A DNA stretch of 64,000 nt. It comes from Amphiscolops sp. MND2022. Its lineage: Eukaryota. This document shows, one piece after another, positions 339 to 33,600 of this stretch (within the stretch, counting starts at the first letter, position 1; every line of letters starts with the position of its first letter). Where the stretch lies: assembly GCA_964187785.1 (NCBI GenBank), contig OZ076409.1, positions 45,634,001-45,698,000 on the forward strand, given 5' to 3'. The notes beneath the pieces are model-generated. The model was not told where the DNA came from. It ran no database searches and saw only the letters and a program-made list of their open reading frames with translations. The translations under genes and the position numbers were made by a program.

Positions 339-1789
339 TTAGTCTTTAGATCCACCAGGAGTAGATTCCACCACTACAGAAGAAGATCTGGATCGGGACC
401 GACTCCTTTCCATGCGTCTGCGCTTGGTATCACTCGGTAGGCGAACAGCAGGAGCATCTCTCACAGAAGGAACGTCAGATGAAGCAACGGTCTGAGCAGC
501 CCCTCCCTCACCGGAGAGAACGGAACGGTGGGACGACATGAGGGACTTATATATAGATGAGCGACCAAAGGTATCTACATAAGCCCAGGGGTCGTAATCA
601 GAGCAGAGTCCAGATTGCCCGAACGAAGCAGATAAAAGAGAGAATTTATCAAGGTTGATGTCAGAACAACAAAGGGCCAGAAGGTCTGGGACCTCAGTTA
701 GATAGCTTTGACAGGGCAAAACCACGTCGGACATTCGGGACTGGAGACCCTTAGTGTCTATCTTCCCCATGACCACTGCGGGGTACTGAGGACTGACAGT
801 GGTCAAACACAGGCAACTCAGTTTAAAAAGGTAGCAAATCTGGCTGTGGGCATGAAAGAAATCGAGCCCCATGAGGAACTCTATAAGGTCTGCAGATTCA
901 TTAACGAGGCTAGGGTCTGAAGAATGGTTGACTCGAAGATAATCCAACAGTGCCACGTATTCGTCCCTGCATGAAGCCTCATTTGGACCAGTTACCCAAG
1001 ACCGCAACTGGAAGGTCGAATACAGGATACTGAAGTGTCGGAGGGCTACCTCAGTGGGACGCTTCAGCATGATGTACGGGTCAAATGCGGCCAGTCCTTT
1101 GATAATGTCAGAGCTGAGCCCAGTATGTCGGAGGACTGCTCCCAATAAGTACTCTATGTACTTCTTGGCACTTGCTACGAAGTCAGACTGCGCTGAGTCG
1201 GCAGTCTTGTCGATGTCTGCTTTATTGGACTTCTTGTTGAAGTGTAACCCAGCGGCCTTCAGGGTACTTGCTGCAGCAACCTTAGTAGTCATTTTGAGCC
1301 TGACTAGGAATTCGTCATCCTTCAGGAATTTCCCGTCCCGAGTTGTGAAATTGAGCAGTAGTAACCAAGCATTCTCAAGAGGAATGGTATCGGGCTCGTA
1401 AACGCGGGAGCAGAGCCGACTGATGTACCTACAAACGTCCCCACACAGGTAAAAGGTGGCGTCTCGTCTTTGTAAGAGATTGACGGTGAAGCTTGAGACA
1501 TCTAAAACGCAAAATAAGAAAGGTCCACTTGGGAACTTCGGACTGAGGTGTGTCTAAGCGTAGTCAACTTACAATCACTGACGAGACGTTGGAAGAATTC
1601 CAGTCGGACGGCAAAAAACTCGTCGGATATCAGGGACCACTCGAAGCTTTGAACCTTGTTATGCACCCCTTGGTTCTCTTGCAATCTGGAATGCATGGTC
1701 AAGAAGCGGAGAACTGACTTCCACCGCCTAACCAGGTCGCGGCACAAATCAGGGAGTTTGTTGACTTCCAGTCTGCATGTGGTAATAGC
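339..1789 (-). CDS. Antisense cargo gene exon 3 (hAT-like C-terminal part; one frameshift near 1550)
   Basis: Acceptor gttatgtttAG|GCT at 1790/1789 is in frame with ORF 1502..1747. A shift in the CACAC run near 1550 joins an open frame (LSPKFPSGPFLFCVLDVSSFTVNLLQRRD...) continuous with ORF 339..1292. Confidence 0.65.
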
Positions 1790-1876: not shown

Positions 1877-2362
1877 GCGAGTGAGTTCAGGTGACTCTTG
1901 GACCCAGTCCTCAGTGGTAAATCCGCCCAGAGAGACAAGCAGACACTGGAGAACGGAGAACATGTCTATCCGGCCGAAAACACTGTAGGTATGTTTATGC
2001 ATCAAGTGTTGCAAATCAAGTGCTTCGAAACGGAAACAGCATTGCACCCCTCTTGCATATGAAGGATGTTGATCGATCGTCTTGATGTAGTCGACTGAGC
2101 AGCCCGAACATGCGACGATATCTGGATCGGTAGATACCACTGACAACAAGCGTGACAAGGACCCCAGTTCCCCTGTGAGGTCAGTGGCCGGAAGAGCGCT
2201 TCGGCAAATGAAAACCCTGCAGAGCTTTGATCCTCGCCAAAAGCGTAGGGACATGAGCCTGTTGGTCCCTACATCCTCGAACTCGATGGAGAAGTGTTGT
2301 GCTGAGGCGACTTGTTCTGCGATGTCCTCCATAGCGCAGTTGAAGATATGTTGGAAGACCAC
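1877..2362 (-). CDS. Antisense cargo gene exon 2 (hAT-transposase-like region, ...HFSIEFED...)
   Basis: Acceptor ttctgtttcccattccAG|GTG at 2363/2362 and donor CGC|GTTAGT at 1877/1876. Both junctions are phase 0. Confidence 0.7.
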
Positions 2363-2502: not shown

Positions 2503-4512
2503 CGACATTCTCTCTTCGCTCCAATCGAAATCATGGAAGGCAGCTTGATAATTGGTAAAAGCCCCTACTCGGGACCACAGCCTGCGAAGGACAGTCAAAT
2601 CTCCTTGGCTTTGAATGAAATCACCAATCAAGCTAATCTGGGTTTTGGTTCGTGATTGGGGAGTAACGACAGCTACAGTATTGCCTTTGAGGTAATCCTC
2701 ATAAAAGGGAAACCTCTCCCCGACGTCGACAAGTTCGGCATGTATGAACTTTGGGAGCTCTCGGGCTAACTCAGCCTTACTGAGGATCTTTCCATTTCTC
2801 CCTCTGACTCTATGCTGGGTCTTGCCAGTAATGGGGTCGACGCTCTTGAGGTGCTCATAGCGCCACCGCTGGTCTTTTCGGAGATGCCTCTCAGACCTGT
2901 GATGTCTGAGGATCTCATATACCCCCTTTGTCCTTACGGAAAAATTTCTTTTGCACATATGGCACCAGACCATATAGGGGTTGTGCAGGGGGTCTGCGGG
3001 GCCAGAAATGAAAGATCGGACCCACCCAATCTTCGAGAAAAACTCCTCTCGCATGGGCACTCCTCGTCTCGGGCCGATTTTGGGCCTGGTAGTCTTCTTG
3101 CTGCATGCCTTACGTTGAGGGTATCTTGGCGACGTCTCCTCGCGTAATTCGGATAGAGTAGCGTCTAGACTGCTTTGACCAGTGGAGTCAGCACCTTCAT
3201 CGGCCTGGCCTCTTTGGACTGACTGCTGGTTGAGACTGACCTGTTCTCCTGTCGACTTTTTGAAGCTATCAGCAATTAAAGCCATCTCTTCAGCGCTGTC
3301 ACTGTCGCCAAGCAACGGAAATTCTCCTGTCTCAAACAGTGCACTGAAGTCTCCACTACCTTCAGAGTCTACTCCTGGGTCAGTGAGGAAACCCTCAGAA
3401 CTAGATCCTCCTGATTGGTGGGGTCTGGGCATGCTGGGTTGTGTCTTAGACCGGAATTGCCCAGTTCTCGGAGGGGCGGTAGCAGGTTTTCCCCTTACTG
3501 CTCCGATGACCATTTGTTCCATAGTAGTAGCAGTCATGTTTATGGCCTCATCTGTTAGGACCCTGAGGAGATGGTAGACCTGGGGTTCAGTAAAGGCAAC
3601 TGTCCTGTGGCCCACTGGGAAGGTATACGGATCATCAGTGTCGAAATACTGTTTTAGAATTGCCCGGCTCCGTCCTGACAACTCCCGTAATGGTTTCTCC
3701 TGCTGGGAATCCCCAGCCTTTGACGTCCCTGGTAAGTTGACATTTTGGTCATCAATGTCAGTGTCGGTGTCCTTCCCAGATTCAAGTCCTGCACAAAAGG
3801 GGATTGTTCCGTAAAGCAGAGGAAGATCTTCTAACCCTGATGATACCCCAGCAGTGTCCAAGTCACTGGTTGACTCGGCCTCAAGTGGTTTTCCACCCGG
3901 TAATGGGGGCGGTCCGCTAATCGTTGAAGGAGAGTCTTCGCCTAATAAAGAAGTGGACCGTACTTCCTCACCACATTCACCCGAAGATAAATGTAGCTTT
4001 GGGAGGTCGGAAGAGTTGGTCACAGCGACATGCAGCAGGGATTCGAGCTGAGACAAACCTGGCAATTCGCCCGTACTTCGGCCAGGCTCAGTCGGGGTGC
4101 TGGTTTTCCTAGGATCTCGGAGTGGTGGGGTAGCTGGAGGATCGTTATTGGAGCCGAGTCCTAACTCTTCTTCATTCTCTCCTAGTGTGGGTGTCGTTCT
4201 GGCCTGAGATGCTTCCATTCGCTGGACCATTTCTGTTGCGTAGGCGGTGACATCGACGTTGCTGTCAGTGCTAAAAGGGGATTCAGCTACATTCTGGTCC
4301 ATGAAGGTCACCGTCCTCGGAGGAGGAAAAAGGAACAGAGACGGATCTTGTATGGCTCCAGTGGAAGAAGTTGGTGCTGGGTCTGGTAATGAATCAGGTC
4401 GAGTATCAGTGCTCTCTGTAGAGTTGGTTGGTGTCTGAGATTCATCTATATTCTGGTTCTCTAAACAGAAAGAGATGAAATTTAGCGGTGTGCTTCCTTG
4501 AAAGAAATCCAT
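2503..4512 (-). CDS. Antisense cargo gene exon 1: disordered N-terminus plus BED-type zinc finger
   Basis: ORF 2434..4512 contains WCHMCKRNFSVRTKGVYEILRHHRSERH. Donor GTTAGT starts at 2502 after ...EERMS (phase 0). Confidence 0.75.
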
Positions 4513-5617
4513 TTTACCGCGTCAGAAAACTTCCGGAAGTGTTTGAAATTTTGAACAAAGCGTGCAAAGCACGTGTTCTTCAGCCATGGAAACAGGAAGC
4601 ATTTGATGAACGAAACTTAGCCTTGATCAAGTTAAACTAGTTCTAACTATGAAAATCCGAACCAACCTGCATTTGATGACATTCTGCTGGAATGAATGTG
4701 CTCAGAAGGATTCTGTCTAAATTAGGACGAAGAGGATGAGGAAGGAGGCCGGACTCGGACAGGGATGAGAAGAAGCTCGGACGACTTCAATCGGGGGAGA
4801 AGGAACTGTCTGCGACAAGTTGGAGACAAAGAGATGACGCAGTAGAAAGTAAGACGAGAAAAAAATGTGAAGAATTTAAATGGATAACAATCAATTACAA
4901 ATGGAATTGGAATTAAGTAAAAGAATTGAAAAGTTGGAGGTCGTGGCTGAAGATTATTACCAGACTAATATTATGGATTATTTACATATTTATTCTGTAC
5001 ATGGAGTCTGCCAGCAAAATGTACAAAGATTATTTCACCATTTACAACTTATGGAAGTATTGGCCGGTTACGACCGTTTGTCCTATCTCATTTTATCACC
5101 ATTGTTCCGTTGCGGTTGCTGTCCTAATCGGGACTTCCGTTATTATTGTTACTCAAATTGTTATTTCCGCCATTTTGAATTATTTTGATTTATTATTTTC
5201 GCCATTTTTATTATTTAATTTTTCATTTTATCAAAGCTCAACGCTGATTGGATGGAGCCATTACGAGAAATTTTGGTGACGCGTGCCGTTGATTGTTTAC
5301 AAGCGACCCGTTAATTACCCACTTGAGACGGGTGTTGTTGATATTCGTAAGCTGAGAGTCATTCACACCTCTTCTAGTGATGGCACTGATGCGGGGTAAA
5401 CACTATGTTATCAAAGGGAGCCGACAAATTAAGGAATTCCATTGAGGAATGTTTACGACGGATCGGGGCTATCGACCTGAGATTTACCCGCAAATTTGGA
5501 AACTTCGGGAAGAGGCCCGACTCGGCTAAATCCTCAAACTAACAAATTCATTCTGCTTTAAATTTCTGCTTAGTCCAGTTGCTCCTAACCGTTTCGAAAA
5601 TAGCGAAAAAACTTATC

Positions 5618-6403
5618 ATGGACAAATACAACTTGGCTAGAAAGTTGTTCGATCTAGAAGAATACGACTCTGACGATTCAAGAAAATCGGTGATTTACAT
5701 CTCTAGTAGTGAAGAGGAGTCTTCAGACTGGGAGACAGACTGTTCTACCGACACAGAGCAGTTGATAGAGCGGATAGAAAGAGAAGTGACATCTAGCCCT
5801 ATGCTCATTGGGGGAAGAATAATGACGTCGGAAATACCAGATGAAAATATGCCGGTGGCTGGACCCAGCTCATCCGGTGCAAATACTGAGAAGACGCCAA
5901 AAATGGATCACAGGTACTTCGACCTAGAAAGGTGCTACGCTCCCCCCAAGAGGATGGAAAAATCACGGATCGAGCTGTGCAATACAATTTTGCCAATTCT
6001 GGAGTCGCCGATGTCGCCGCCAGACCACGAAAGGGGGCCTAGCCAAGATACCCCCTTGGTCCAGCCATCAATGAGCGAGTTTTATACGTCCTATCATGTC
6101 CAAAATACCAGACCCCTTGACAACTTAAGCAATCAGAGATATACTGGGTGCATGGTATGTGGAAGATCAGTAGACGAAATTAAAGACGAGAAAATCAATT
6201 GGTACATGCAGAGATCAACGCCGCGCGGGGAACCTGAGTTTGTCACCAAATTGAGGAGAGAAGCGTACATAAATGGACTGAATGCCGGCTGTCTACTTTT
6301 CATTGCTCCCGCAGTGTCGCAGGCTGCCGCCTGTGACGGCACATTGATAACGACGTCAGCGCCAAACCAGGAAACCGTCCCAGGTACCCTACCTACATTT
6401 TAA
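5618..6403 (+). CDS. Uncharacterised acidic protein with CxxC motif (about 261 aa) in element 1 3' region/LTR
   Basis: Intact ORF 5579..6403, first ATG 5618 (MDKYNLARK...), containing CMVCGRSVDEIK. Confidence 0.5.
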   Translation: MDKYNLARKLFDLEEYDSDDSRKSVIYISSSEEESSDWETDCSTDTEQLIERIEREVTSSPMLIGGRIMTSEIPDENMPVAGPSSSGANTEKTPKMDHRYFDLERCYAPPKRMEKSRIELCNTILPILESPMSPPDHERGPSQDTPLVQPSMSEFYTSYHVQNTRPLDNLSNQRYTGCMVCGRSVDEIKDEKINWYMQRSTPRGEPEFVTKLRREAYINGLNAGCLLFIAPAVSQAAACDGTLITTSAPNQETVPGTLPTF

Positions 6404-7485
6404 ACTTCCATTTGCTGAAACTTGAATTTATGTGTTAACTATGTTCGTTTTGTTTGATCAAGTACATTTATAGTTGTTTGTAGTATTAGTCTGTTAAAAT
6501 TACGATTTGGAAATATCCAAATCAGGATGTGTTTTGAAGTTTAGCAGGAAGCTTATTGTAATACAAAATGTAAAATCAATTTGAGGCAATAACACACTGT
6601 AAGTAAGTTAATCGCGAGAAGGAAACGTGTTCAAGTGAGAAAACGTCCCTTCTCGGCAACGTAACTTTCAGTACAGCTATTAGCCAATCAGAGTGCTTCT
6701 TTTGTTAATAATGAATGCTTCATTCATGATGGCCGAATAAGGCCTATTGACTGAGCGGTGCTATTTTATGCCAGTCCTTTAGTCAAACAGCCAATTCAGG
6801 CTAATTCAAGCATATTAATACCTTTGCTGTCTAATTGATTCCATACTTACTCGGAGCTACTAGAATAGTGATTTTAATTTAGACAAATAAATTGGTGATG
6901 CTTTGATGCTTATACATTTTCAACTTGAATAAAAGGACAATTCAGGCCCTTTTACCATGTCCTTTAAGTGTGCAGTGCATGATATGGATTTAAGACTGTT
7001 CCGGCCCTGACATGTGAATATTTCCTGATATCGGTGCGATATTAAAATTCCATACATATAGCAGTACATTCCATTCTCAACTTAATCCGCAGTAAACTTG
7101 TGTCGGCACGTGCCTGCACTACCCGCTACAAGAAAATATGTAGGCTAAGGTATTTGTTTGCATCACGGTTGAAGTAAATATTCCCAATGAATTGTTTGAT
7201 GTTGCCGCTTAATATGATGACTTTGAATGCCATTCTGTAAATATTCCCCGGAAATATGTAACCGAAGGGGAATTCCTTTGTGAAATTTGAAGATCATATG
7301 ATCTACTTTCCCTCGCAGGTCATGTAAAGAATGTGATTGTCATTCCCCGAGCAGTATAAATACCACTACCCTGTTGGGGAATTCATTAATCTGTTCTGAT
7401 CTATGCGAGTAAAGTTGTACAAAAGCAGTTAACCTGTTAGTTTTCCGGTTCTGATAATTCAAATATTCAACCCGGTTCAGTCTCA

Positions 7486-8071
7486 ATGCCTACTACCAGA
7501 AAACAAAAGAAAGCAAGGAAATCTAGAGGACTTGAAATTCTCTCAGATATAGAAAACTTGAACGTAATGTTAGGTGAAAATCATTTTAATGAGACAGAAA
7601 AGGACGATAGTTTCGATGGTACTTCCATCAGAAGACAGGAAAGTGTCATCAGTAATAACTTGGAAAATGAAGGAATGAATCCTTACTCTAATCATAGAAA
7701 TTTGGGAGTTGGGACTAGTGCCGATTACGGCCAAAATTCAGCAAGCGCAGATTCCCAAGTTGAGATCAATAGATTGTCGAGTGAATTGAACTCTAGGATA
7801 TCAAGGGAAATGGATGAGATGATGAATAATGTTAGTTCCCAGATCCAGAGGGCCATAAACGATGCCATCAATAACCAAGTTTTGCCTCAAATTCAAAACG
7901 TTATTATGGCCGGCCCGGGACAGGGGACTAGAAGGGGATGGGAGAGGTCCGTAGAGAGACCGGAAGTTTATCCCGAAGTTCCACACAGCTCAAAAGCCAG
8001 AATTAATTCAAACAATGAACAAAGTGAAATCCATCATAGAGGTGAGAAATCACATCATAATGTTCATGACA
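7486..8071 (+). CDS. Probable gag N-terminal segment encoded inside the LTR of element 1 (reads off the LTR end)
   Basis: The MPTTRKQKK... ORF has a coiled-coil-like segment and stays open to the LTR end at 8071. Analogous ORFs occur at 13891 and 31231. Confidence 0.55.
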
Positions 8072-15600: not shown

Positions 15601-18600
15601 GCTGTTGTAATTGACCCTGAAGCGATAACCAACCAGAAAGCAGTAACTGATGACGCATAAATAAAAGAGAGTACTCGCAAAGAGTACTAAAAAACTTCAG
15701 TAAGGCTTTGATTACCATACTGTGCAGACATCTCCAAAAACAGATTCTCTCAGATTTGAAACATTTCCATTCCTCATCAATTTCATTTAAAATTATTTGA
15801 ACAATCTCAATTCAATTCTTAAAACATTTTTTCAGTCATTCATTTGCGCTATCCGAAGTTAACATCGTCTTTCTGATGCCAACAACGACTACTTCCTACA
15901 GTCGTCAAATCGTCATTGCAACGGAACGAATGAGCAGCACTGTTTCAACTCATGCCTGAGCAAACAACCGATCGATGCCGACAACTAAAGTCCGCAACGG
16001 TATTTCCGAATTCCAATATTCACCATACCTCTACCAGCCTCAAGCGAACGACAACTAGTATCATGAGTCCTCACATAACCAATAACGATACGAAGAAGCA
16101 GTTCAACTTCAACACTTGCGCAAACTTGCAACTTTGAAGCGATGACGACTAATAACCACAGTCGTCACAAACTTCCAATTCCAACCTCAACTCACCATTG
16201 CTACCTCCAAGCGTCAGTGTCTTCAGTCTCAACTCAATATTTCACTCTTTTTAAAAGAAGCAGAGTGTCATGCCCGATTGCATGATTGAAAATGACGACC
16301 ACAATCCCTAGTCGTGACAAACTTAGATAACTCAATTATAATTCAACTAACATCATGAAGCTGCTAAAAACGGAAAACGACTGGCTAAAACGGTGGTCAT
16401 GTCATAAACATTTTTTCATGTAAATCAGTTTAGTGCATATTTTGAAGGTCATGAAGCATCTACTAATACAATCCAGCAGAGAGTACCCATTAATGTAAAG
16501 ACATCAGAATATCATAACGACTGTTGTTGTTAGTCATTGATTATTTTTGAGATGTCATGTAGTAGTACACTATTCACAATCACAGAAGTTTAGTAACCAA
16601 AGTTACCATATGCAGTAGTTTAGTGCTATTAACCCAGTGCTGTGTGATCCGATTGTAATAGCTTCATCTAGTGTGTAGCAGGTGCGAAAGGATTTTGCGC
16701 AGTTGTATGTGGTAGTTAGTGACGACTGCAACACGCAGTCGTAATTGCACTACAATTAACACCTGAAGCGACAACCAACCAGAAAGCAGTAACCAATTAC
16801 GCACAACAAAATGTGAGTACTTGCAAAGACTACTAGTGAACTTCAGTACGATTTTGCTTACCATACTGTGCAGACGTCTCTAACACTAGTTTCTCTCAGA
16901 TTTGACACATTCTCATTCCTCATCAAATTCCTTTAAAAGGGTCAAACAATCTCAATTCAACTCTTAAAACTAAAAAACATTCCTGTATGGTGATCACCAG
17001 ACCTCAGAGTACGAATAGCGTTGAAGTAAATAATTTCAATATGAGTGACAACTAGTATCATGAGTCCTCACATAACCAATAACGATACGAAGAAGCAGTT
17101 CAACTTCAACACTTGCGCAAACTTGCAACTTTGAAGCGATGACGACTAATAACCACAGTCGTCACAAACTTCCAATTCCAACCTCAACTCACCATTGCTA
17201 CCTCCAAGCGTCAGTGTCTTCAGTCTCAACTCAATATTTCACTCTTTTTAAAAGAGGCAGAGTGTCATGCCCGATTGCATGATTGAAAATGACGACCACA
17301 ATCCCTAGTCGTGACAAACTTAGATAACTCAATTATAATTCAACTAACATCATGAAGCTGCTAAAAACGGAAAACGACTGGCTAAAACGGTGGTCATGTC
17401 ATAAACATTTTTTCATGTAAATCAGTTTAGTGCATATTTTGAAGGTCATGAAGCATCTACTAATACAATCCAGCAGAGAGTACCCATTAATGTAAAGACA
17501 TCAGAATATCATAACGACTGTTGTTGTTAGTCATTGATTATTTTTGAGATGTCATGTAGTAGTACACTATTCACAATCACAGAAGTTTAGTAACCAAAGT
17601 TACCATATGCAGTAGTTTAGTGCTATTAACCCAGTGCTGTGTGATCCGATTGTAATAGCTTCATCTAGTGTGTAGCAGGTGCGAAAGGATTTTGCGCAGT
17701 TGTATGTGGTAGTTAGTGACGACTGCAACACGCAGTCGTAATTGCACTACAATTAACACCTGAAGCGACAACCAACCAGAAAGCAGTAACCAATTACGCA
17801 CAACAAAATGTGAGTACTTGCAAAGACTACTAGTGAACTTCAGTACGATTTTGCTTACCATACTGTGCAGACGTCTCTAACACTAGTTTCTCTCAGATTT
17901 GACACATTCTCATTCCTCATCAAATTCCTTTAAAAGGGTCAAACAATCTCAATTCAACTCTTAAAACTAAAAAACGTTCCTGAATGGTGATCACCAGACC
18001 TCAGAGTACGAACAGCGCAGAAGTCAAAATTACCAATATGAAGGATTATTGTGATAACGAAAGCGACGCCAGTTTGCACAAATTTACTCGCACAACTTGA
18101 CCACTGAAAATAGTAATCGCCATTCGAATGAACAAGAAAGGGACCATGAACAGATTCGTAATGAATGCAGATTTGGCGAAACGAACAGACAAATTGGCGA
18201 ACTACCTGGTCTGGTTAGGAGATTAACGGAAAAGTTAAAGAGACCAAAACGAGTCTAATACTCAAACTATCAGATTTATAAATCATTCTGACATGGTGAA
18301 AGGAGTCCCTGGCTTCTCCATTCCAACTCCACAACCAAACCAGCCAAGACTAACGACATTGGAACCCTAACGACATTCCAACCATCGCAGATACAGGACG
18401 TCATTTCAGAAATCCACACGCTGAGAAATACGACGGCAGATGGAATCTCTCAGCCAAAAATCTGCAAACTCAAAAGCAACTCTTCAAAGGACACCGTGAG
18501 AAATTCAATGAATTTGAACATCTACTTTCAAATCACCTACAGCCTTTCCCAATCAACAAACTGACCGAAGAACAGAACCCTAACTATTTCCAAAGCCTCA

Positions 18601-21600
18601 TCCGAGATTAAGCATTCGAGTTTGGCAAACCCTCCGAATCACAACGGAACGACAACCAAAAATGTCCGAGAGGCCTTCAGAAAACGAATACGCCAAAGAT
18701 GACCTCAAGGAAGTATCTAAATTTGAATTTGATCAGATGCGATACAACCCGTCATCTGAGTCGTTCACTGCCTTTCTAACAAGATTCAAACGAACAGCCG
18801 AACAAGCATTTCGCGAGAGAGCTAACGAAATAGCAGAGACGTTCCTCCTTGCCAAATTACAATCCAGCTACAGAACGGCCTAGCCGTAGCAGGCAATTTC
18901 GATGCATCCACTGAAAAAATAAAAGTATTTCTGCAGCGTAGATGCCAATACGCTCAGCTCATTCCGGACAGTGGCATCATGCAGCCCAACAATCAAGTAA
19001 ATCCTCAGACGGAAACAAAACCAGCCCAACCAAATCGAAAGCCAACAGAAAATTGTGGAGCAAAAAAAAGTTCGGTGGTAATTGCCGCCACTGCCAAAAT
19101 TACGGCCACAAACGGGCTGACTGCAGCGAGCGACTCCGACAAGAACCATTAGCGGGCACCAGCAAACAGCAACAAGGCCCAAATCCTGAAAATGACCAGT
19201 GCAAGCCACAATAAAACCCTAAATGTGTTTGCCAAAGTTTCAGATTAATAGACACTCAGCTGGAGATTGGAGATACCGCATACTAGGGGCATCAGCTTAC
19301 CGAATTGTTCCATATAGCAAACAGAGTCAATCGGAGAACAAAGAATTCCGCCGAGATTTCAAACTGGCACAAAATCAACAACGATCGATAAACGAAGTTA
19401 ACATAGAGACACAACGCTCAAGCGGAGAAGACGACCAGAGTGACTGCTTCGACAATGGTAATGAGACGAGGGATGTGGGTCATTCAAAAAACTTCCAAAA
19501 CCACGTCATCCAAAGACTACAAACAAAAGTGTGCTTCAACCAAACCAACTGAAGACTAATAAATACTCCAAGAATCACCTAGGGTTTCGGCAGCATCCCC
19601 AGAAGTTAACCACCACTACTAAAACTAAGAATTTGTAGGTCAAGAAACTATCAGCAGACAACTACCACATTCTATCTATGACTACGTACCCCACACACAA
19701 ACTAAATCAACCTACCTTGGAAAAGATGAACGACAGATAAGCTAACTTGTCAACAGAACGACAACCAATGAACATACCCCCAAAACGATGATGACTCCTC
19801 CAAGCAAACGAACAGCCTAACTCAATGGGTGAAAAGGTGAAGAATACAAACCCAATGAAGTAGAACCCTCCTGAAATCAAACAACTAGGTGCTACCATTC
19901 AACTGGACAAAGTAAGCCGAATGTAGTACGTCCCACTACAATTCAGGAAGTATTAAACCCAAGCTTGCTGGGCACAGGAGCAATCCAAAGTGCCATGTCC
20001 GAAAACGAACTCCGTCGGTTACTAACAGCACACATAGCAGCTCTACTCGGAAAAGACCCAGCTCCTGATATCAAAGTCCATATCGCAAATGGCAGCAACA
20101 AGTCTTCTTCGATTCTTCATTGGTTGGAAAATCGTTGAAGAAACATCCATGATTCTACCAATTGTGGGCAATATCCTCATAGGAAAGTCTTTTTTCGAAA
20201 AGTTTCCAGTTACACTTGAGCTGGACAAAAACATAGTCCGTTTCCCTGACATTTCCTTCAACTGCGACCTACAAATGGGAGATTCAAAACGGAAATAATG
20301 CGAATAGGCTCTTCTCAGAAAACAGTGATTCCACCGTTACAACAACTCTTGGTCCCAGTCGTCGCTGAAAATGACATTGTCACAGTCACAGGTACAACCG
20401 ATACGTTCCCCGCCTTCGAACGCCGCACACGACTCTTTGTTTCACCAGCACTCACAGAAACCAAAAACCAACTCAGTCACGTCCAAATCACAAATCCATT
20501 CGACCACATCATCATCCTACAACCTGGAACCACAGTTGCCGCGCTCAAAGTACTGACTCCGAACTAAGCCAAAACCGTGCAACTAATGACAATCGAACCA
20601 CTCAGTCTCAACACAAAGTACCCAGAAGAAGCAGACCAGACCCTCAACCAGCTGTTCCAGGATCCAGAAAACAAATCACCAAGACGATGGTACCATACGA
20701 CTAAGACGTGTGATAACCCCTCAACACTGAACAAAGTCGAACGACGAAACTACGATGAGATCTTCAAGCTCACGCAAGAGGAGAAGCTGGACCCTACCCA
20801 AGATAACGACCAGCGAAGGCAGTGTTTAGCAAACTTCGAGTGGGCAGACACAATCCTCACAGCCCAGGAACAACAACAAGTGGAAGCACTTTGAAAAATA
20901 TCATTCGGTTAAATATCACTCGATTGTTGCTCGACATCGTCTTGATATTGGTCTCAACACAGAAATTGGGATTAGGTTAACACCCAAGAACGACGACCCT
21001 GTCTACGCCTAAAATATGGCCACCCCTACTAATCGCAAAGACGACCTTTTAGTTGAACTAGCTTTGATTCAGGAATACGGTGTCATCACGACCCTAACGT
21101 ACAGTAAGTCCTCTTCTCCTATCTTTGCGCAACTTAAACCCAGTGGTAAGTTGGTTGATTTGAAAAGAATCAATCACCTTCTCATGAATGAGTACAACAA
21201 GCACAACCATCCATTAAAGACGATAGCAGACGCCGCGCAACACATGGCAGGTAAAAAATTTTTCGTACGCTTGACTGCTCCCAATTTTACCACTGCCTGC
21301 AAATGACAGATGAACAGTCAGTTGAACTACTTGTCTTCAATTTTGGTAGTCGCACATTTGCTTACCTCAGGTTAAACCAAGGTTTCAACAGGTCAGCTTT
21401 CAACAATGCGGTACGGGAGTACCTTGACCCACTAGTTGAAGCTGATAAAGTTGCCCAGTACGCCGATGATATTGGTTTTGCTGCTCACAGTGTTGACGAG
21501 CTAACTGCTATCATTGAAGCGGTTTTTCAGCACATACAGCAAGCCGGACTCAAACTGTGAATGTCTAAATGTGCATTTGGTCATTGTAAAATTGAGTTTT

Positions 21601-24600
21601 TAGGTAGAAGCATCACCGCCAAAGGGGTTGTCTCAATCGATGAAAAGATTGAGAAGTTCCTCAAAAACCCTAACTTACAACCTCTGTTAAATCACTTCAA
21701 CGTTACATTGGATTTGTTCAGTTTTACAGGCGATGCATACCGAATTTAGCAGCAAAACCTGTACCCAGTTTAAACTATTACAAAAGGAAGTAACTTTCAG
21801 CTTGACACAAGTTCACAAAGACTCAGTTTTTGATATCAACCAGAACTTAGCGAAGGCAGCGAAACTTTCGCTCCATTTAATCCTTGACAAGCAGCTAGTT
21901 ATTATGTGTGATGCAAGTGAGCATGCTGCTGGATATGTCCTACTGACCGAGGATTACACGGAAAAAGACAGTTCATCCCTCAAGTCATATGCATTTGTCG
22001 CCTTTGGCTCTCAACGGTTTACTTAAGGGCAAATGTCTCTAACATGGTATGGTAAGGAAGTTTTAGCCATGCACTCTGCTTTTGACGAGTTGGCCCATAT
22101 TTTATGGGAAGTCAAGAAACCAATCATTGTAATGACAGATAACAAACCTTAACCAAGTTCTTCAGTCTAAAAGGAACCCATCTAAGTCGTGGAATTTTTG
22201 CGATCAAACATTGCAGTTCTTTTTTGTTGTGGCACACGTTCCAGAATTCCTGCTGTCGATTACTTGTCACGTTTGAATATTAACCTACAAGACAGGATCC
22301 ACTTCAGGTTGAATACCCAGATCACTATGTACCTTATGGAGATTCACCTGGCAGCCAAGACGCCTACACAAGATGACTGCCAAGAAGACTATGACCCTGA
22401 TGAACCAAAACATCAAGAAAACACAGTTAACAAACCAACCCTTCAGTCACTGCTCAACTCAGTCCCTCAGTTTTCACACTAAACAACAGACGAATTCGAC
22501 ACGAAGTTGACTGAACTACGCAATTACTTTGATCAACATCTGCCCCCTGTTACGCCCTCAATGACATTCACCAGGTTTGTGCAGCCAAATAGAACGACCA
22601 CCCTGATAAGTCAGGTATGCCCGCAAGGGAATTCAAGTCTTGTCGAGGCGCAACTAGTCAACAGTGACGTCCAAAAATTGGTTGAAATCCTAAGCTGTAA
22701 CGAATCACAACCAAACCACGTCAACTTTGAAACTACTTTTTTCCAAAAACTGTTTAAGAACAAAAAATGCCTTTAAGTTGTCTACCGTGATTTGTACCGT
22801 AACCTTTACGAACCAAACTGATCATCCAGAAAATGCTCAGGCCGTAGTCAAGACACACGGTCATGAAAATCCCGGTAGGGACACCCTGGAGCCTCTAAAC
22901 TGTTGGTCGAAGTAAGAAAACAGTACTACGTGCCGAACTTAGCCGTTAACGTCCAAAACTACGTTAGCAACCGTTCTGACTGTATTAAGGCAAACCCGGC
23001 TATCGTCAGAGACCTCACACCCCTCCAGAAGATTTATTACCAAGGTAACTTTGTAATTAGACCAAGTAGGGGCGTTTTCAAACTCAAACGGTTACAAGTT
23101 CGAACTGACTGCTTGCGACTACTTCTGTAGGTACTTTTTTGCAATCCCGATCAAGAAACCAGACCCGAAATCCGTAATCCAAGCTCTAGTCCATGCAGAT
23201 GTTTACACAGCACGTATAGGTGCCCAAAACATTCACAACCGACAAAGGCACTGTCTTCACGTCCCAGATTGTGACTGAAATCATGAATTCGTCTGGCATC
23301 CAAATAGAACACGCAACTGTCAAACACGCCCAGACAAAAGGTTTAATTCAACGAATTCATCAAAAAAATGAAACAAATACTGAAAATAAACGTGCAGCTG
23401 ACACCCCTCAAGGGGTAAAGTCGTCAACATGACACACAACATCGCGCACCATGCGTCGTTGAAATGCTCACCTGCGGAAGTTTTCCACGGACGAGTTCCC
23501 TACAACGCTTTTGACTTTAAAGTCGGAAATCCAATCAAGGTGCGAACACACCAGTAGAACTCACAAAACACCTAGAAACAGTTAATGAAAAGTAAAAACA
23601 AACACAAACTAACTTTCTAGAAGCATTACATAAATACAAGGCTTACTAAGACCGAAAAGCCCAAGCAACTCCTCTGAAAGTAAATGATAACACTTTCCTG
23701 CTAAAACCAAAATTGTCAAATCAGTCAGAGAAAACAACTTTCGCGAGCGAGTTCAAATGGGGGGACTATATAAAGTAGTGAAGGTATTTTCAAGCTCAAA
23801 CTACATCGTCGGAAACGTGGGTAGCTTCAGCCCATTTACCCCGAACACACCGTTGGATGAAATTCTTGACGACCCAAACGAGCACTATGCCGATCCAGAA
23901 GCAGCTGAAGACTAGACGTATTGAACGAAAATCTACCTCCTAGAACCACCGGCAAGCCGCAACTCATCGAACAATACGAGGAAAATGATCCTGATGAAGA
24001 CATTCAAACCGAACCGACCATGGTCTAATCTGCTATGATAACAAAAAACGAACCTCCCCAATACCAATCAAATGACATTACTCTCGTCCACCCAACGCTG
24101 GAATAACTTCCAGAACAGACCAATGAATCGAATAATTCAATTCACACACGAAATAACAATTTCAGGTACAGTCTCCGGAAAAACCCGAAAGCCAAAACTT
24201 ACAACGTCTTCCTAGTACATGAGCTCCAAGTCAAACCAGCTTTACTTAAATTCATGCAAGGCAAGTCAGTCAACTAAAATTATGTAAGAAACCCGTAACT
24301 AGAACTACATGGTAAATGTCGGACATCTACATCACTCATTGGAAACAGATAAAGTTACCTCCATCACCTTGTTCTGATGATTAGTAGGCTTCGCCTCGTA
24401 TCAGAATGAGATTAAAGGACCCAAAAAATTCAGATGAAGGTGTCGTTGTATGTAAAATTCATGAAACCCATGTAACGACTAAATGTCAAGGACGTCAATG
24501 ACACACATCACGAGTGGTGACGTCCCAAGACACACATCAACGATGATGCCGTCATGAATAACGCGTCCTTTCGAAAAAAGTGCATGCAAATAAAAACGAT

Positions 24601-27600
24601 TGACGGTCGTAGCACGACACTCACTTAGTGAACACCCGCTAGAATACACGCCAGCAGAGTATGAAAGAGGAGTTATCTGAAAGGAGTGAAGCAGCTCCAC
24701 CCACTCACCAAAATGTCAAATACGCCACATGTATATTAACTGGACAACGCAGAACGACCCTTGGTGAGTGAGACCTTATTCAACTGGTAGTCGCGAAAGT
24801 GACTACACTACCAGAAACAGAACGACGGCAAAAATTAAACTAGCCGCTTCAACTTTTCAGGTGCAGCTGAAACTTAAACATGCATCCCTAGCAAAAACAA
24901 ATTGTCATAACGTAGTCTTACTTGTAATCTGTTGACAAACTAAACTGCTCACCTAACCGGGAAAACGAGATGAACTCAACTGGCAGAAAATTCAATTATA
25001 AATGCATCCAGCAACAAAACGGCGTAACAAATTGGAAAACATCACCTATGAAACCTAGTAAAAAACAAAAGAGTAGTATCAACAATCAAAAACACGTAAC
25101 AAACGCATGAAATCAACATGTAAAGAATATGCATTACATATTTGTTTTAATTACATTACTAAATTATCTGCAACGATGTTTACCAATTGTCCACTCAAAC
25201 ATCCAACCTCTCACACCACTGCAGAACCTGAGATTTGTCGGGATCGATGCTTTGCTGATTTCAGTCGGGAGACGCCGCCACTCTCAGAGTCTAATTCTGT
25301 ACCTACTTTCTGTTTCCTCTTACTCGTCGCAGTTTTCATACGCTCTGACCCTCGCTTGCCATGATTACGTCCGGCAAGTGACATGCGTGAACTCACGCCA
25401 CGGGCTCGAGGAATCATTTTTGATATACTCCCAATGGCCTCATCAGCCTTTTTACGGGGTTGAACAGGTGACGCAAGACATCTACACCCAGTCGTCAAGT
25501 CTGTCGCCGTTGTTTGCTTCGCAAAGGACTGCGGAGATCCGCCTGCCAAGTTTTTGTTCAAAGGTGTGCACAGACAGCCAATCGATACTCATCAATCGAG
25601 ACGCCTCCTGATGTTCCACTGTCTCGTTTCAACAGTTGGTCCCAAGGTCGGTAACTTTCTGCATCAGATACCCGGGATATTTGCATATCCGTAAAATTGG
25701 CATGGCGTAAGTATCCAGTCATAAGTTTACGCGCATCCCCAGCAAGTCCAAAATTCTCGCAGCTACACACTTGTTTGATACTTGACAACATTTGCCTGCA
25801 AGTCAGGGAAATTGTTCCAACGTCCACGAAGTCGGCCAGATACTCAATTCGGACCGAACCACAATTAACAATCCGAAGGCCGTTGAAGAGTTCACTACAC
25901 CACTGCCAATGCAGGTAACTTAGCCATTAATTGATTTCATCGTCAACAACAGGAATGACTGTTGGTTGGCTCCTCCACCGATACATAAAAAAACTACTCG
26001 CCTCATTGATGTGCTGGATCAATAGGGCACTACAGTCCTCCGGAACCAGAGCCGACTCGGGTGAAAACTAGACAGCAATCGACGAAAAAATCGCCACAAA
26101 ATTGACTAATGACTGACCGTCCATGTAATACTCTGACAACAGGGCTTCGCACAATCCACTCGCGAACAGCTGAACCTCTCGATAAAAGACCAGCGCATCG
26201 TAACGGGACTACTGTGCAAAAAAGGTCTTATACATTTCTTGAGGTAAAGGACCCAAAGCAAAAGCGTGGGAGCTCACACATGCTCAAAGTCAACTTCTGC
26301 AGGCACGTTCGACGATTTTTTCACCAAAACTCGCACACAGCGGATGAAAGAGACAAACTCCGGTTCAAAGTAGATGTCACGGTCGCGCCTCTGTGTGTTT
26401 CCACAAGGAAACTTCGATACGACCAAAACAGAAAGTCACTCTTCTTAAACAATAAGCAACTCAAAAAAGGCACATACCGGAAACAATCAAAATACTCTGA
26501 CATCTTCAAAGTAACAATCCTAAACAGAAGAAAAAATTACTTGAATCAAACAAAGTTACACCAAACAGGTCATACCACAAATACAAAACTAGCATACCAA
26601 CAGTCAGCTGAATATGGCAACTGAGGGCGTGATTGTCGGTCACTGAATATTAGGACGTTCGAACTGGGCACTGAACGTAACTCTATTAACGCTCCACAAC
26701 CTTCCAATCAGAAGAACCTAGCGAGATCGTCTCATCGCTCTACCAACTCGGCACAAATGGCAGCTAACTGTGGTAGAGTCAAGTCGTCGCTCCGTACATA
26801 CTAGAAAAAAAAGAAAAACAACAAATCAATATAATTCAACGCAAATTAGGTAACACAAAAAAGAGTACCAAGACTACGACTTCCAGTTACATAAAAAACA
26901 CAACACCCTAAGGAATCCCCCTGTAAACAAAAACGTTCCAATAGCTGACGTAGCTGTAGCATCAATTCGAACTCCAGTCCATTTCCAAAGTTTGAGAGAC
27001 GATACTTTGTAAGGATCCAGGCCCCCAATCGCTGTTTGAACTCTTACCGTATGACATGCTGCACCCACTGCACATCCAGATAAGGCACGGCCCACAGCCA
27101 TATTGCTCTCTGCCACAACGCTACACAGACTTCCAACTGGATCCAAACACGAGAGCACTGTCACTGCTATGGTTAAAAGTTCGAACTACCATGATTCATA
27201 AACGGTCCAAGTCACCAGAGTCATTGACTTTGTGTCCACATCGCTCACAAGGTGACAGTGAACTTGCCGAAAGTTTCCGTCGAAGAAAACTCGCAGACCA
27301 ACACGATTCCGAGCAACCACCAATTCACACAGTTTCTCGATGACGTACAGATAAATACCGTACAACACCAGAATCTAAACACAGATTATTACCATAAACT
27401 TCACCCAACCAAATCTAACGACCCAAGCAAGAAGTTATCAGCATGACCAGTCACCAAAAAAAGCACAAATACACACATGTAACACTTCGCATGAATCATA
27501 CAGTTGTAGCATGCAATCAAATTACTCACCTGAAATTTGAGCAATGTCAGACTCCTTTCTACGAAAGTTAGCTCGCCGCGCATGCTGACTGACCATCCAT

Positions 27601-30600
27601 CCATGAGCTTCATCAGACTCTTGAAGTTACCGACAGTAGCAAGCCCATTCAAAAAGAAAGCACAACCACAAGTAGGATGCACTTTCCGTACTTAAGCGAG
27701 GTCTCTCAGTTTCCGCTTTTGACTCTTTCTCCAAACGGATTCGTTCCTCCAACGATAACCGTAGCGGGCACTCCAGGTAAACTGGAGGCTCCATCATCCG
27801 ATCTAACCGAATGTGCCGGTCTTCGTCAGCTGAAATGGTTGGGCACAATTTGTCCAGAAAAGAGCGTTGCGTCATAATCCGACACTTTTGCGCGCGACGC
27901 GTATGCTCCGCCCCCTTCCAGTGTCCCCACAAGTTCTGGAGACCCTACCAGTGATGCAAACGTCAACTTTACACATCAGGCGCCTCGTAAAGCTGTCCAA
28001 AACTTGTCGTCTGTGGCGAGGAAAACTTTCAAAGAATCCGACGACACTGGAAACGAAATAAGACGGTTTCAGAGTAATAATCTTCCTTTTCCGCCGTAAA
28101 ACAACAATGACGCAGACCTTAAACGTATTTAAAAGGTTATTTCAGAAAATAGAAACCTTATCCCACAAAGTCACTAGAAACTAGGCGTCAAAATTCCCAC
28201 CATTGTGCTGTATAACATTACATGTGATCTTGAAAGTAGTTTCTAGGTATCGTTCCTCACAAAGTTGCAACGAGCACATCGCAAGTAGCCGACACCAACT
28301 CTGGGTTACCGAATGCAGTAGGCACATGTGAAACTGTGCTTGACCCACTAGCTGCCCCACCCAACGTTACTGAACCCAGCTCCAATGGCCCAGACGGCAA
28401 GAAGCGACGTCATGAACCCGAAGGAATTTAAGACTGAGATGCCATCACTTCCCGAAGCACCGGCAAAAAAATCTTTCACGGCTAGAATGCCCACGGTGTC
28501 AAGCTGCCCGAGTGACGAGTTCAAGACTGCTTTCACCCGATGACCAACATTGTCCTTCATTGGCTTCTCCAGTTGCTTCAGAAGATCTTCCAACCACTTT
28601 GTTTGAGAGTCGCTGACATCTACAAACCGAACACCCACGGGAGTCAATACCTGACAGCACAATCTAAGCAGAACTAATTAAAAACTTATTCGCGGTCAGG
28701 CAAGACGACAGTTAGGGACAATATTTACTACCCCACACGATACCCCCTCAAAATGCCAAGGAAACCCTTCTCAACTACTACGCAGGAAGCTGCGTAATTA
28801 CAATGCCCAACCTACATCAATATCTTTGATTTTGCTAACCTAGTTGCGAGTCCATCATGCAGTGTAAATGACCACCCAAACCAGTAGTCGGCCTATTGCA
28901 ACCAGGACGTCGCAGTCGCGGGAAGGCTCGGTCATAGTCTACCAACGACGACAATTCACATCATCAGTCAAAACAATTGGATTTTCAATCTAACAGCAGA
29001 CGCCTCCAAGGTCCCCTATCCAAGGTATTCTTTACAATCAACAATGCAACAGGAAGTCAGGGTCTCCTAAAGTGATGCAGCGCTAGAAATCAACAATTTT
29101 TCGCTTCCCCAAAACAGGCAGTTCAGATGATCCGAAGGAAAGCTGAAAACAATTAATGCTGAAATATTCAAGTGATGTAAGGAACTTACGGAATTGCCCT
29201 GATAGCGCAATGTTTAACAACTCATCAAGGCCTTCCCGATTGGCGGAAGACACACGCGTCACAAACTGAAAGCACTGCGACTCAGCAGCAAGCGCACCCT
29301 CAGAAATAGCCCCAATACTTGACGATATTTCCTACAGATCCCCTGAAATTTGTTCCACAAACGACACTGAAGACCACACGTCCGGATCGAAAGACGAGCA
29401 GCCAAGATCTGACATTCAAAGTGGAACCACGACGAACAGTTAATGGAGTGAATGAACAAAACAGTACCAATAAACACAACTGCAATTAATGGGCGAACGA
29501 ACGTCGGAATTGTAAAGACGACTAAACAGGATCATTGCTGGAAGGAAGAGTGGAATACGTGGTCTGATCAACATCATCTTTTCCTAGGCTCCCGCTACAA
29601 TAAACGATCAAAAGAAAAATACCCTGAGTATTTTTGAAATTCTCAAATCAGTAAAACAACGTTGTCAAAAGGATTTCACATGCCTGACAGAAACAGTCGT
29701 TCTATCCAGTTTAGCAATTCACCCAAAAGAGGAAAAAAAGAATTCAGACCGCAGATTCTACCTCATTTCAGACTGCTTACGGAAAGGCGATAAATCAACG
29801 ACAGTAACGCAATGCAAACCAAACTATGAGTTTCTTGAGCAAAACAAACAAAGACGAATCCGGAACCAATTGAATGAAACTGATGTATTGTCAAAAATAT
29901 TGGCGGACTATGAGCGAATGCCGACTGTCGCAGTTATTTTCGCTTTTGGTGTTCACTTTCTTTCAGCCAACTATTCGATAAAAGACGCACGATTGGATGG
30001 CGTTACAGCAGAAATGCCAGTACGAACAATTCACTCTCAATACTTCCTACAACGCCTCACATGTGACGTCATCTTTCAGTCATTCATTTGCGCTATCCGA
30101 AGTTAACATCGTCTTTCTGATGCCAACAACGACTACTTCCTACAGTCGTCAAATCGTCATTGCAACGGAACGAATGAGCAGCACTGTTTCAACTCATGCC
30201 TGAGCAAACAACCGATCGATGCCGACAACTAAAGTCCGCAACGGTATTTCCGAATTCCAATATTCACCATACCTCTACCAGCCTCAAGCGAACGACAACT
30301 AGTATCATGAGTCCTCACATAACCAATAACGATACGAAGAAGCAGTTCAACTTCAACACTTGCGCAAACTTGCAACTTTGAAGCGATGACGACTAATAAC
30401 CACAGTCGTCACAAACTTCCAATTCCAACCTCAACTCACCATTGCTACCTCCAAGCGTCAGTGTCTTCAGTCTCAACTCAATATTTCACTCTTTTTAAAA
30501 GAGGCAGAGTGTCATGCCCGATTGCATGATTGAAAATGACGACCACAATCCCTAGTCGTGACAAACTTAGATAACTCAATTATAAGTCAACTAACATCAT

Positions 30601-33600
30601 GAAGCTGCTAAAAACGGAAAACGACTGGCTAAAACGGTCGTCATGTCATAAACATTTTTTCATGTAAATCAATTTAGTGCATATTTTGAAGGTCATGAAG
30701 CATCTACTAATACAATCCAGCAGAGAGTACCCATTAATGTAAATACATCAGAATATCATAACGACTGTTGTTGTTAGTCATTGATTATATTTGAGATGTC
30801 ATGTAGTAGTACACTATTCACAATCACAGAAGTTTAGTAACCAAAGTTACCAAATGCAGTAGTTTAGTGCTATTAACCCAGTGCTGTGTGATCCTATTGT
30901 AATAGCTTCATCTAGTGTGTAGCAGGTGCGAAAGGATTTTGCGCAGTTGTATGTGGTAGTTAGTGACGACTGCAACACGCAGTCGTAATTGCACTACAAT
31001 TAACACCTGAAGCGACAACCAACCAGAAAGCAGTAACCAATTACGCACAACAAAATGTGAGTACTTGCAAAGACTACTAGTGAACTTCAGTACGATTTTG
31101 CTTACCATACTGTGCAGACGTCTCTAACACTAGTTTCTCTCAGATTTGACACATTCTCATTCCTCATCAAATTCCTTTAAAAGGGTCAAACAACCTCAAT
31201 TCAACTCTTAAAACCAAAAAACGTTCCTGAATGGTGATCACCAGACCTCAGAGTACGAACAGCGCAGAAGTCAAAATTACCAATATGAAGGATTATTGTG
31301 ATAACGAAAGCGACGTCAGTTTGCCCGAATTTAACTCGCACAACGTGACCACTGAAAACAGTAATCGTCTTTCGAATGAACAAGAAAGGGATCATGAACG
31401 GATCCGTATTGAACGCAGATTAAGGGAAACTAACAGACGAATTGGCGAACTAACTAGGCTGGTTAGGATTTTGACGGAAAACGGAAAAGGCTGCTTCTTG
31501 TAATAGAGAAGAGAATGACTTTAATACTCAAAATATCAGATCCACAAGTCATTTTGACATTAATGAGACACAACAAACGTTTTTACCTGCGATTATTGCC
31601 AAAAAGAACAAACCGACAACCCGCTGGAGCCAAAAAGGACTATTTTGGTCAACCAATTGCGGAACTGTAGTAGTAAAAGGGTAGACTTAGAAGCACTTTG
31701 CGAATGGCATTCAATTGGCTGAAGTGGATGGAGTTACTCCCGGAAAATATTGAGTCTTTCAGTAGTGTTCAATTGCGTAAATACTAAAACAATTCAAAGA
31801 ATCACATTTTGTTGATACCATACACCTATACTCAATTTTTTCCAAGCTTGAAAGTAAAACTAAATTCGTCAACTGGTTCGCAGGGCAAGGACTCGAAGAG
31901 TATTCATGCTAAATCCTTGTCCTTGTTGGATGTTAGATTGATAGTTATTTGTATATTTCTTTATTTTTGTATCTTTTCAATCACTACATCCATATAAATT
32001 GGTGTAACTTAACTCAAAATCGAAGGCAATTGAGCTTGTGTTGAAACACTGTGTCACATTTTCATACAGTTCTCAGAACTGTCTCAGCTTTCGTGTCATA
32101 GCATCGAGACATTGAACGCTTTGAAAATTCGTCATTTATCATTTTATTTGGGAAATAGCATCTCTCATTGGGCAAAAACTAATACACATAGCATCTTTTC
32201 ATTAAATTTACATGTCAACTGCCATTTTACAGGACACGGCCTTCGTCGAAGGTGACGAAACTGGCGATGAAGGTGCGGAGTCAGCTACTCTTTGAATTAT
32301 TCCCCTTCAACATCGTCTTCAATAGTAACATGATGATAACCAACGTCGGAAACAGTCTGTTGGAAATTATGCCAGATATTCTGGAACAACCCGTCGATGA
32401 CCTCTTCAAACTCGTCAAGCCCATGGCCAGCTTGACGTGGGAAACGGTCAGATAACCGGCTATTTCTTGTTTAACTGTCACTACTTGTCTCAGGAATTGT
32501 CATCTATAGTGATAATGAAGATTTTTAACTACTAAACTATTGCTGTGTAAAATTTTTCTATGAAAAAATTAGAAAGACAATTTTGACAGTGAAACGGTTA
32601 CTGATTATTCATCAAAGTCGAGTCTATATTTAGGCAAATTATAAAAAAAACCATTTTAGCGTTTCATGTTTCACATCGGTTTCACTGCCGTTATCAAATC
32701 ACACTAAAAAGCGTTAAGTCGTATCTTTTAAAAGCACGTTTCCATGATAACAGCACAAATGTGGTGATAAAAAATCAAGAAAATTTTTTGCTCTAAATGG
32801 ACATCCAAATACCAAGATATTACATAACAAGACGCTCACTCAACACCAGGTTACCTTCCGTTCCGATCGACTTTAGCAACAATATCAGTAAAAAGCTCGA
32901 GCATGGCCAATAAGCTACGGAACTCTCAGAAAAATTCAAAAAAATGAGAATTAAGACATTATTTGATTTTTTTTGGTTGATTTTAGGCACCTTTTTATCT
33001 GAAATGTTTTTTTTAATGAAAAAAAGAATGTCGAGGAGCCCGTTGTTTCGTTGTTGAATTCAGGTTTTTGTAGTATTTTTTCACTCAAATTGATCAAAAA
33101 TCTTCATAAGTAAATACCAACTTTTTTTCGTTAAAATTCGTGGAAGAATCTATAACATTTGAGTATAAAATTGAAAGATGCTCAAAAACGCGGCGAGAGA
33201 TTATTTTTCCCTTCCTAATAAACCATGTGTGGAAATAAAAATTCTCGAATGAAAAAGCCAGAGTTATGAAATCACGATTTAAAAAAAGACGGGAACGTCT
33301 AAAGTCGGCGCTATATCTAAGGCTCAAAAAGCGCAGTTTTTAAAACATGCGTAGGACGTTTTCATGAAAACTCCAATTTTTGCACCTCCGTCTCCTTTTT
33401 AGAAAAAACGCATTAAAGTTCGGATATAACGTCAGAAATTCGGATACAGCGCTTTACTTCGGATACTACCAGGGGGGGGGACTTCAATAATATTGAAGGA
33501 CGGACCCTTTGGGGACATCAAAAAATTTTCGAAGAGTGCCAAACAAAATTCAAAGGGGACCCTATGGTCTCGTCCGGTTTTGTATCTTAGTTGAAAATGG

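Follow-up and report, generated by a model that had tools for sequence, protein, structure and literature searches.

Antisense open reading frames (ORFs) between pol and the 3′ long terminal repeat (LTR), termed aORF-3R, have been described in the maize retrotransposon Grande (gene23), in rice RIRE2, in Retand (TRP28, PF04195) and in Botrytis Boty (PMC7264820, PMC11963269). As far as these accounts go, the pol-to-LTR region is long, the frame is conserved across most copies and a nuclear regulatory role has been proposed for it, while its origin is called unknown, the idea of a nested transposable element being unsupported by any similarity to such elements (PMC7264820, PMC11963269). Here we analyse a gene at the same position and on the same strand, which we call the cargo, in two divergent Gypsy elements within a stretch of 64,000 nucleotides (the window) of Amphiscolops sp. 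MND2022 (assembly GCA_964187785.1, contig OZ076409.1, positions 45,634,001 to 45,698,000). A preliminary description of the window had proposed that a decayed element, element 2, holds remnants of a cargo homologous to that of element 1, and that the cargo is an old, functional module inherited vertically with a whole Gypsy lineage. The layout of an antisense accessory gene is thus already known, but we found no published report of a transposase-derived antisense gene in Gypsy elements, subscription papers, Repbase reports and supplements aside.

The cargo differs from the aORF-3R systems in having three or more conserved introns in an animal-looking genome, in being reshuffled against pol and in a predicted structure that points to a DDE transposase; in contrast to TRP28, its exons gave no PF04195 match in Pfam scans. 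With hAT transposases (Hermes) and the domesticated hAT protein Kat1 it appears to share, in the same order, a BED-like C2H2 finger, an RNase-H-like core, an RW tryptophan and a helical insertion/C-terminal region. Unlike hAT transposases, it has no conserved DDE or CxxH and no sequence-level match, and no terminal inverted repeats (TIRs) were found around the pol-less cargo loci of group D. ZBED and DAYSLEEPER are likewise domesticated hAT proteins; the cargo differs from domesticated hAT proteins in that a retrotransposon, and not the host, has kept it. The anti-silencing proteins VANC of VANDAL/MuDR elements target motif arrays. They resemble the cargo as accessory factors that are encoded by the transposable element and diversify between subfamilies (PMC13547354), but they belong to DNA transposons and have an unrelated, MAIN-like fold and origin, and no arrays of 9-mers were detected in 10 LTRs analysed here.

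Homology of the cargo genes in two Gypsy clades

Natural copies were sampled from the genome and assigned to clade A (element 1 type) or clade B (element 2 type); all sampled loci were picked by presence of the cargo. Compared directly, the two cargos of the window match no better than expected by chance: tblastn with the three long ORFs of element 1 against positions 24000-30600 gave at best a non-significant E of 0.1, and a clade-A profile reached an i-E of 0.94 in the element 2 region, no better than in seven control stretches. The homology that had been read from collinear remnants emerged instead through intact relatives and profile-profile alignment. Exon-chain profiles of six A and eight B rows (three of nine A loci failed the exon pattern and were not modelled) aligned over 557 columns with probability 96, P 1.5e-9 and a score of 81.8, whereas none of 20 block shuffles scored above 28.6. 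The individual exons align as well, namely the last exon (200 columns, P 6.9e-7, a score reached by 0 of 40 block shuffles), the finger exon (P 1e-4, or 1e-5 with deeper rows), the RNase-H-like exon (P 0.004-0.008, or 9.8e-6 with deeper rows) and a small exon found by tracing splice signals, which measures 211-217 nt in both clades and carries RW at residues 22-23 (P 4.2e-5). Control alignments across different exons gave P 0.51 and 0.88.

Furthermore, three introns occupy identical or almost identical columns of the alignment (192, 361, 434/437), with phases 0, 0 and 1 in both clades. The first donor GT is present in all seven anchored A loci (11 examined) and in 10/10 B loci, the first acceptor AG in 10/10 anchored A and 10/10 B loci, the second donor in 8/8 anchored A and 10/10 B loci, and the last acceptor in 11/11 A and 10/11 B loci. 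The C-x2-C...H-x5-H finger and the W at position 23 of the middle exon are invariant in all 14 rows, and the proteins end in basic, RS/K-rich tails. Identity between the A and B cargos is only about 17% and their N-termini are unlike each other. Judged from these alignments, the homology is genuine, detectable via intact copies only.

The intron pattern itself varies. In P0252 and P0291, two database proteins, intron 2 is absent and the reading frame continues across its site as predicted, and five loci (L082, L084, L085, L086, L087) have about 120 extra bases between the RNase-H-like exon and the last exon, probably one further intron. Intron gain or loss is thus occurring within a retrotransposon-borne gene.

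The cargo of element 1 occupies the minus strand and consists of exon 1 (2503..4512), in which a long P/S/T-rich N-terminus precedes the BED-like C2H2 finger, exon 2 (1877..2362), homologous to the RNase-H-like exon of clade B, exon 3 with the RW motif (1573..1789, 217 nt), overlooked in the preliminary description, and the last exon (339..1501), which ends in a basic RS-rich tail. The gag-pol part of element 1 lies to the left of the window (L061).

Element 2 reads along the plus strand from its 5′ LTR (17263..18293, TG...CA), followed by TGGTGAAAGGAG, which resembles a primer-binding site (PBS), through a gag remnant (18519..19453, the portion aligned by a clade-B query) and a pol remnant with protease (PR), reverse transcriptase (RT), RNase H (RH) and integrase (IN) at 19483..23912, which holds 32 stops and is split into nine high-scoring segment pairs in all three frames, to the polypurine tract (PPT, 30496..30509) and the 3′ LTR (30510..31559). 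The PPT and the LTR start fall at 30496-30510, and homology of pol to a clade-B reference stops at 23912. The cargo remnant lies on the minus strand and comprises the first coding exon (29182..29415, E 1e-18), a clade-B-specific upstream exon (28221..28626, E 1e-13), the zinc-finger exon (27530..28093, frameshifts near 27944 and 27650), the RNase-H-like exon (26924..27371, with an internal deletion and a frameshift), the RW exon (26618..26800, 62% identical to an intact B copy at E 1e-21, with a stop at the W position) and the last exon (25507..26429, four stops and a frameshift near 26277), whose intact relative is predicted to form a helical region similar to Hermes 364-575. The remnant is real, as had been proposed for 25200..28700, and longer, since it begins at an ATG at 29415.

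Three of the four peptide pairs on which the proposal rested stood up to comparison. The quoted peptides are present on the minus strand at 25500-28100, the donor GTGAGT at 27529 has its counterpart in GTTAGT at 2502, the zinc-finger pair is correct and spans the frameshift near 27944, the pair with IGDFIQSQGDLTVLRRL is correctly aligned, and YRPW aligns with YDPW, the PW being invariant. AIGGLDPY and GLAAFDPY had been misaligned: GGLDPY sits in the RNase-H-like exon and aligns with GRIDMF, and GLAAFDPY pairs with TAFAPEA of the last exon.

Exons of an intact clade-B copy (L069/L070) match the window remnant collinearly (E 9e-52, 3e-38 and 7e-61) and the RT of element 2 falls with clade B; hence, element 2 is a degraded member of an active Gypsy clade. 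A DNA search of the genome gave 62 matches, none near-identical, which include one intact multi-copy family. No target-site duplication was seen at element 2 itself. Its LTRs are 98-100% identical over 750 nt and 83% identical in the final 130 nt, whereas the interior is heavily decayed; the pair was recently converted or duplicated, and its identity therefore cannot date the copy. Additional tandem LTR copies start at 15130 (83%) and 16266 (window 15130-18293 and 30074-31559). Behind pol, a non-coding motif of 50-67 nt (24497-24563) is 87-93% identical among clade-B copies that differ in its flanks.

Selection on the cargo and its exchange against pol

Pfam domains of the intact pol genes of L061 and L070 follow the Gypsy order PR-RT-RH-IN, with which the element 2 remnant is collinear. 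All nine examined flank pairs are LTR pairs (TG...CA) of 97.9-100% identity with the PBS TGG(C/T)GA(C/A)AGGAG, and eight of the nine show a 5-bp target-site duplication; hence both clades were recently active. The LTRs of the two families are dissimilar, as described earlier, with no A-versus-B match at E 1e-4 among 10 LTRs, and pol identity between the clades is 43%. In a quick, midpoint-rooted tree with ten other Gypsy RTs of the same genome, A and B form one clade (SH-aLRT support 100). The cargo is placed tail-to-tail behind pol. In 18/18 further loci integrase was found behind the cargo, 17 times on the opposite strand and once on the same strand; among 20 earlier loci, pol lies behind the cargo in 16, and the 10 kb retrieved for each of the other four contain none.

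The cargo is under purifying selection, with ratios of nonsynonymous to synonymous divergence (dN/dS) of 0.03-0.12 in the eight exon pairs with measurable synonymous divergence (dS). These values are similar to or somewhat above those of RT and IN (medians 0.01-0.05; L081 and L083 excluded from the RT estimate for frameshifts). In most cargo pairs silent sites are saturated and the protein is 40-90% identical. The gene appears to be functional for its carrier. Together with the three shared introns and the single RT clade, this agrees with the view of the cargo as an old, homologous and functional gene kept in one place.

Strict vertical co-inheritance with pol, in contrast, finds no support below the level of the clades. 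In clade A (10 elements) the integrase and cargo trees reject each other (approximately unbiased (AU) test, p<1e-40 both ways, a result inflated by topologies taken from the same data) and a Mantel test shows no correlation (rho -0.02, p 0.56). In clade B (six elements) the two trees have the deep split in common (rho 0.8, p 0.017) and conflict at shallow nodes. L093 and L095 have identical integrases (dS 0) and cargos with saturated dS, element 1 and L087 differ in integrase by a dS of 0.06 with only 55% identity in the last exon, and identity in sliding windows changes abruptly where cargo meets pol and is uneven inside pol. Likewise, the LTRs of four A subfamilies align only partially (66-74%) while their pol proteins are 92-97% identical to that of element 1. 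The cargo alleles are far older than the pol differences. As RT unites A and B, the cargo was likely captured once and long ago, and because the cargo and pol trees disagree within the clades, it was swapped by recombination and not inherited strictly with pol. A single ancient capture followed by recombination among co-existing subfamilies is the likely course of events. Congruence of pol and cargo, proposed earlier as a check, holds between the clades, which is not a strong test with two deep clades only, and fails within them, in clade B in part.

With E limited to 0.001, a profile search returned 224 proteins, part of which are just 25-40% identical to the sampled rows; the ten that we looked up are unnamed ENA records. 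Because its best match in this genome is only about 31-34% identical, P0252 probably comes from another organism, and a divergent homolog of this kind suggests that the cargo may be more widely spread. Scans of JGI metagenomes revealed no relative, and no long full-length cargo homologs were found, which is weak evidence.

First-look searches gave 7,673 last-exon candidates of clade A and 1,576 of clade B, which are not copy numbers. At three places of the genome (G000 C12:14.84-14.87 Mb, C1:34.58-34.59 Mb and C3:36.42-36.43 Mb) cargo matches lie about 14.3-14.5 kb apart, which suggests tandem elements. Other loci (L091, L097 and L234-L239, on G000 C2, C12, C6, C4 and C7) belong to blocks of more than 10 kb that are 95-99% identical on several chromosomes and combine a 5′-truncated cargo with another one that lies on the other strand and often has internal deletions; no gag, pol, LTR pair or TIR was found in them, and they may be pieces that travel within some larger mobile element. 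The pol-less loci of group D were considered as free hAT elements and rejected, as no TIR, 8-bp target-site duplication or LTR pair was seen and the fragments lie within large duplicated blocks.

Origin and role of the cargo protein

Structure models suggest where the cargo came from, a point on which the preliminary description gave no identification. The model of the N-terminal half was made from a natural copy with the first intron open (finger exon, intron, next exon) and contains an RNase-H-like core of the order beta-beta-beta-alpha-beta-alpha-beta-alpha with a predicted local distance difference test (pLDDT) score of 63-77. In Foldseek searches RuvX came first and Hermes chains, whose alignments (199-263 columns, E 2.6e-3 to 8.6e-3) were the longest, took ranks 2, 3, 4, 6 and 7. 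In a VIA comparison with 48,161 chains, Hermes 8edg_A ranked 25 (Z 6.3, root mean square deviation (rmsd) 5.6, 123 residues aligned, chain 133-264), and the separate model of the last exon matched Hermes at rank 17 (Z 4.8, rmsd 3.9, 151 aligned, chain 364-575). Each match is weak and the two are jointly collinear, with the invariant W encoded by the exon between the two matched ranges, where W319 lies. The residues W319 and H268 and the CxxH motif have been described (PMC4763223, PMC5225508). By its order, the cargo W may be equivalent to W319.

Catalysis appears to be lost. We take the catalytic residues of Hermes to be D180, D248 and E572. When mapped under the assumption of ungapped ends of the VIA ranges, no acid exceeds 55% at the end of strand 1 or 60% at strand 4 in 35 rows, no acid is conserved across the clades in the E572-equivalent region in 19 rows, and CxxH is absent, H reaching at most 6% at the expected columns.

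Several results weigh against a hAT origin. Neither structure match is significant alone, each being within the range of common folds: Foldseek gave no E at or below 1e-3 for the cargo models and nothing at all for the last-exon model (pLDDT 51), actin-like and other RNase-H-like folds outscore Hermes by Z in the VIA comparison of the N-terminal model, and this model has an overall pLDDT of only 46 and includes a read-through intron. In addition, Pfam scans of the cargo exons found no transposase family, comparison with the hAT transposases of this genome (BLAST, HMMER, HHalign) gave a weak finger match only, and no close relative of the cargo turned up as an intact, free-living transposon. 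Searches of Pfam and PDB sequences with the cargo exons gave nothing above the cut-off; zf-BED appeared weakly in six of nine B sequences (best E 0.036, below the cut-off), and a search for PF14291 had no match anywhere and is uninformative. On the models we nevertheless consider a hAT-like origin with loss of catalysis likely, and a DDE-type ancestor of any kind slightly more so.

With moderate confidence we favour the view that the cargo is an antisense, intron-bearing, catalytically dead transposase of hAT descent, inserted once in the ancestor of A and B, that serves as a nuclear DNA-binding helper of its own element. In this view, a hAT-type DNA transposase inserted a single time into the common Gypsy ancestor, its catalytic residues disappeared, and an antisense promoter, either internal or in the 3′ LTR, would drive transcription of the gene. 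Introns opposite to the packaged RNA strand survive reverse transcription; hence, the cargo introns would be copied because an antisense gene escapes splicing of the packaged RNA. The dead transposase would still bind DNA and keep the surfaces that form oligomers. Among hAT elements, sequence-specific DNA binding comes from the BED finger (PMC4763223), and the chances seem about even that in the cargo a BED-like finger and the transposase scaffold bind the LTR or 3′ region of the own element and counter silencing or activate transcription. The nuclear factor would thus attach to its own element and, in a VANC-like manner, promote transcription or resist silencing, and old combinations of cargo and LTR would last as classes of specificity, with pol moving among them. 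Against this role stands that co-divergence of LTR and cargo could be plain linkage, as the 3′ LTR adjoins the cargo, and that no repeated 9-mer arrays were found in 10 LTRs, in contrast to the subterminal arrays of hAT and those of VANC targets.

The same dead transposase might instead act at integration, where it would bind chromatin or DNA and tether or escort the integrase complex and so affect target choice or nuclear import, like the chromodomains of other Gypsy elements. This is unlikely, even though the transposase-like scaffold and basic tails would suit it and nuclear-import roles have been among those proposed for antisense ORF proteins (PMC7264820): identical or nearly identical integrases (L093/L095, dS 0; element 1/L087, 0.06) travel with cargos saturated at silent sites, so that cargo and integrase need not be closely matched partners. 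A regulator tied to cis sequences agrees better than a partner of integrase with the free exchange of pol against lasting cargo/LTR types, although linkage could account for this pattern as well. Somewhat less probable is a selected accessory gene that is not hAT, with an RNase-H-like fold from a MULE, P or Kolobok element or a host gene, so that the Hermes matches would be a coincidence at the level of the fold. The weak structure scores and missing sequence match to hAT are in its favour, as is the fact that MULE transposases have CxxH and W in common with hAT (PMC5225508) while our structure comparison took in no MULE structure, but two independent models match Hermes in the correct order, and order and spacing of finger, helix, RNase H, RW and helical parts resemble, by eye, the hAT ORFs of L147.

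Slightly lower again we place binding of the cargo protein to element RNA through the finger and RS-rich tail, for export or packaging of unspliced genomic RNA in the manner of Rev or C. elegans CERV. The RS/K-rich tails, the conserved non-coding 67-nt motif behind pol of the B copies and a precedent in Cer1 (PMC10309623) agree with such a role, whereas the BED fingers and hAT scaffolds in the cases considered bind DNA (PMC4763223). Independent captures of similar genes by A and B, or a neutral nested transposon, might account for the identity of about 17%, the different N-termini and the conflict of cargo and pol trees within the clades; yet this explanation is highly improbable and already largely refuted by three introns of matching position and phase, the same site and strand in clades that are sisters by RT, purifying selection, and IN or pol behind the cargo in 18/18 and 16/20 sampled loci.

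Neighbouring features and implications

Clade A contains a second extra ORF with a CxxC motif (5543..6400, plus strand), which runs head-to-head with the cargo, has an acidic N-terminus, extends into the 3′ LTR and is kept in L131, L133, L137 and L145; it has no Pfam match, and a counterpart in clade B was not found. The 3′ LTR of element 1 (6314..8071, plus strand) includes the gag start. More generally, LTRs of 1.1-1.85 kb hold the gag start and the gag frame crosses the PBS (window 6314-8071; L069, L131, L133, L137, L139). Where a clear PPT is expected before the 3′ LTR, clade A has a pyrimidine-rich, acceptor-like tract (window 6285-6313), in contrast to the PPT of clade B and element 2. 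The window further holds an intact distant Gypsy element (38278-44121) with an ORF of 1770 aa, 190-bp LTRs of 99.5% identity and no space for a cargo, and a host exon encoding a haem-NO-binding domain (9652-10101; PF07700, E 1e-30).

For the antisense accessory genes of LTR retrotransposons, of which neither origin nor function is settled, insertion of a nested transposon has been named as a possible source (PMC7264820, PMC11963269), and the A/B family is a candidate case of it. Here a retroelement carries a gene with several introns across reverse transcription, and introns of this gene have been gained or lost. Moreover, many young intact copies and natural swaps of cargo and pol alleles make binding specificity and anti-silencing directly testable. 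Tentatively, a retrotransposon lineage may have domesticated a cut-and-paste transposase as a sequence-specific regulator of its own and kept it in the form of a spliced antisense gene; old alleles of this gene would set subfamily specificity while pol is freely exchanged, and the regulator could have aided the very high copy number. If true, this would be a domestication from transposon to transposon.

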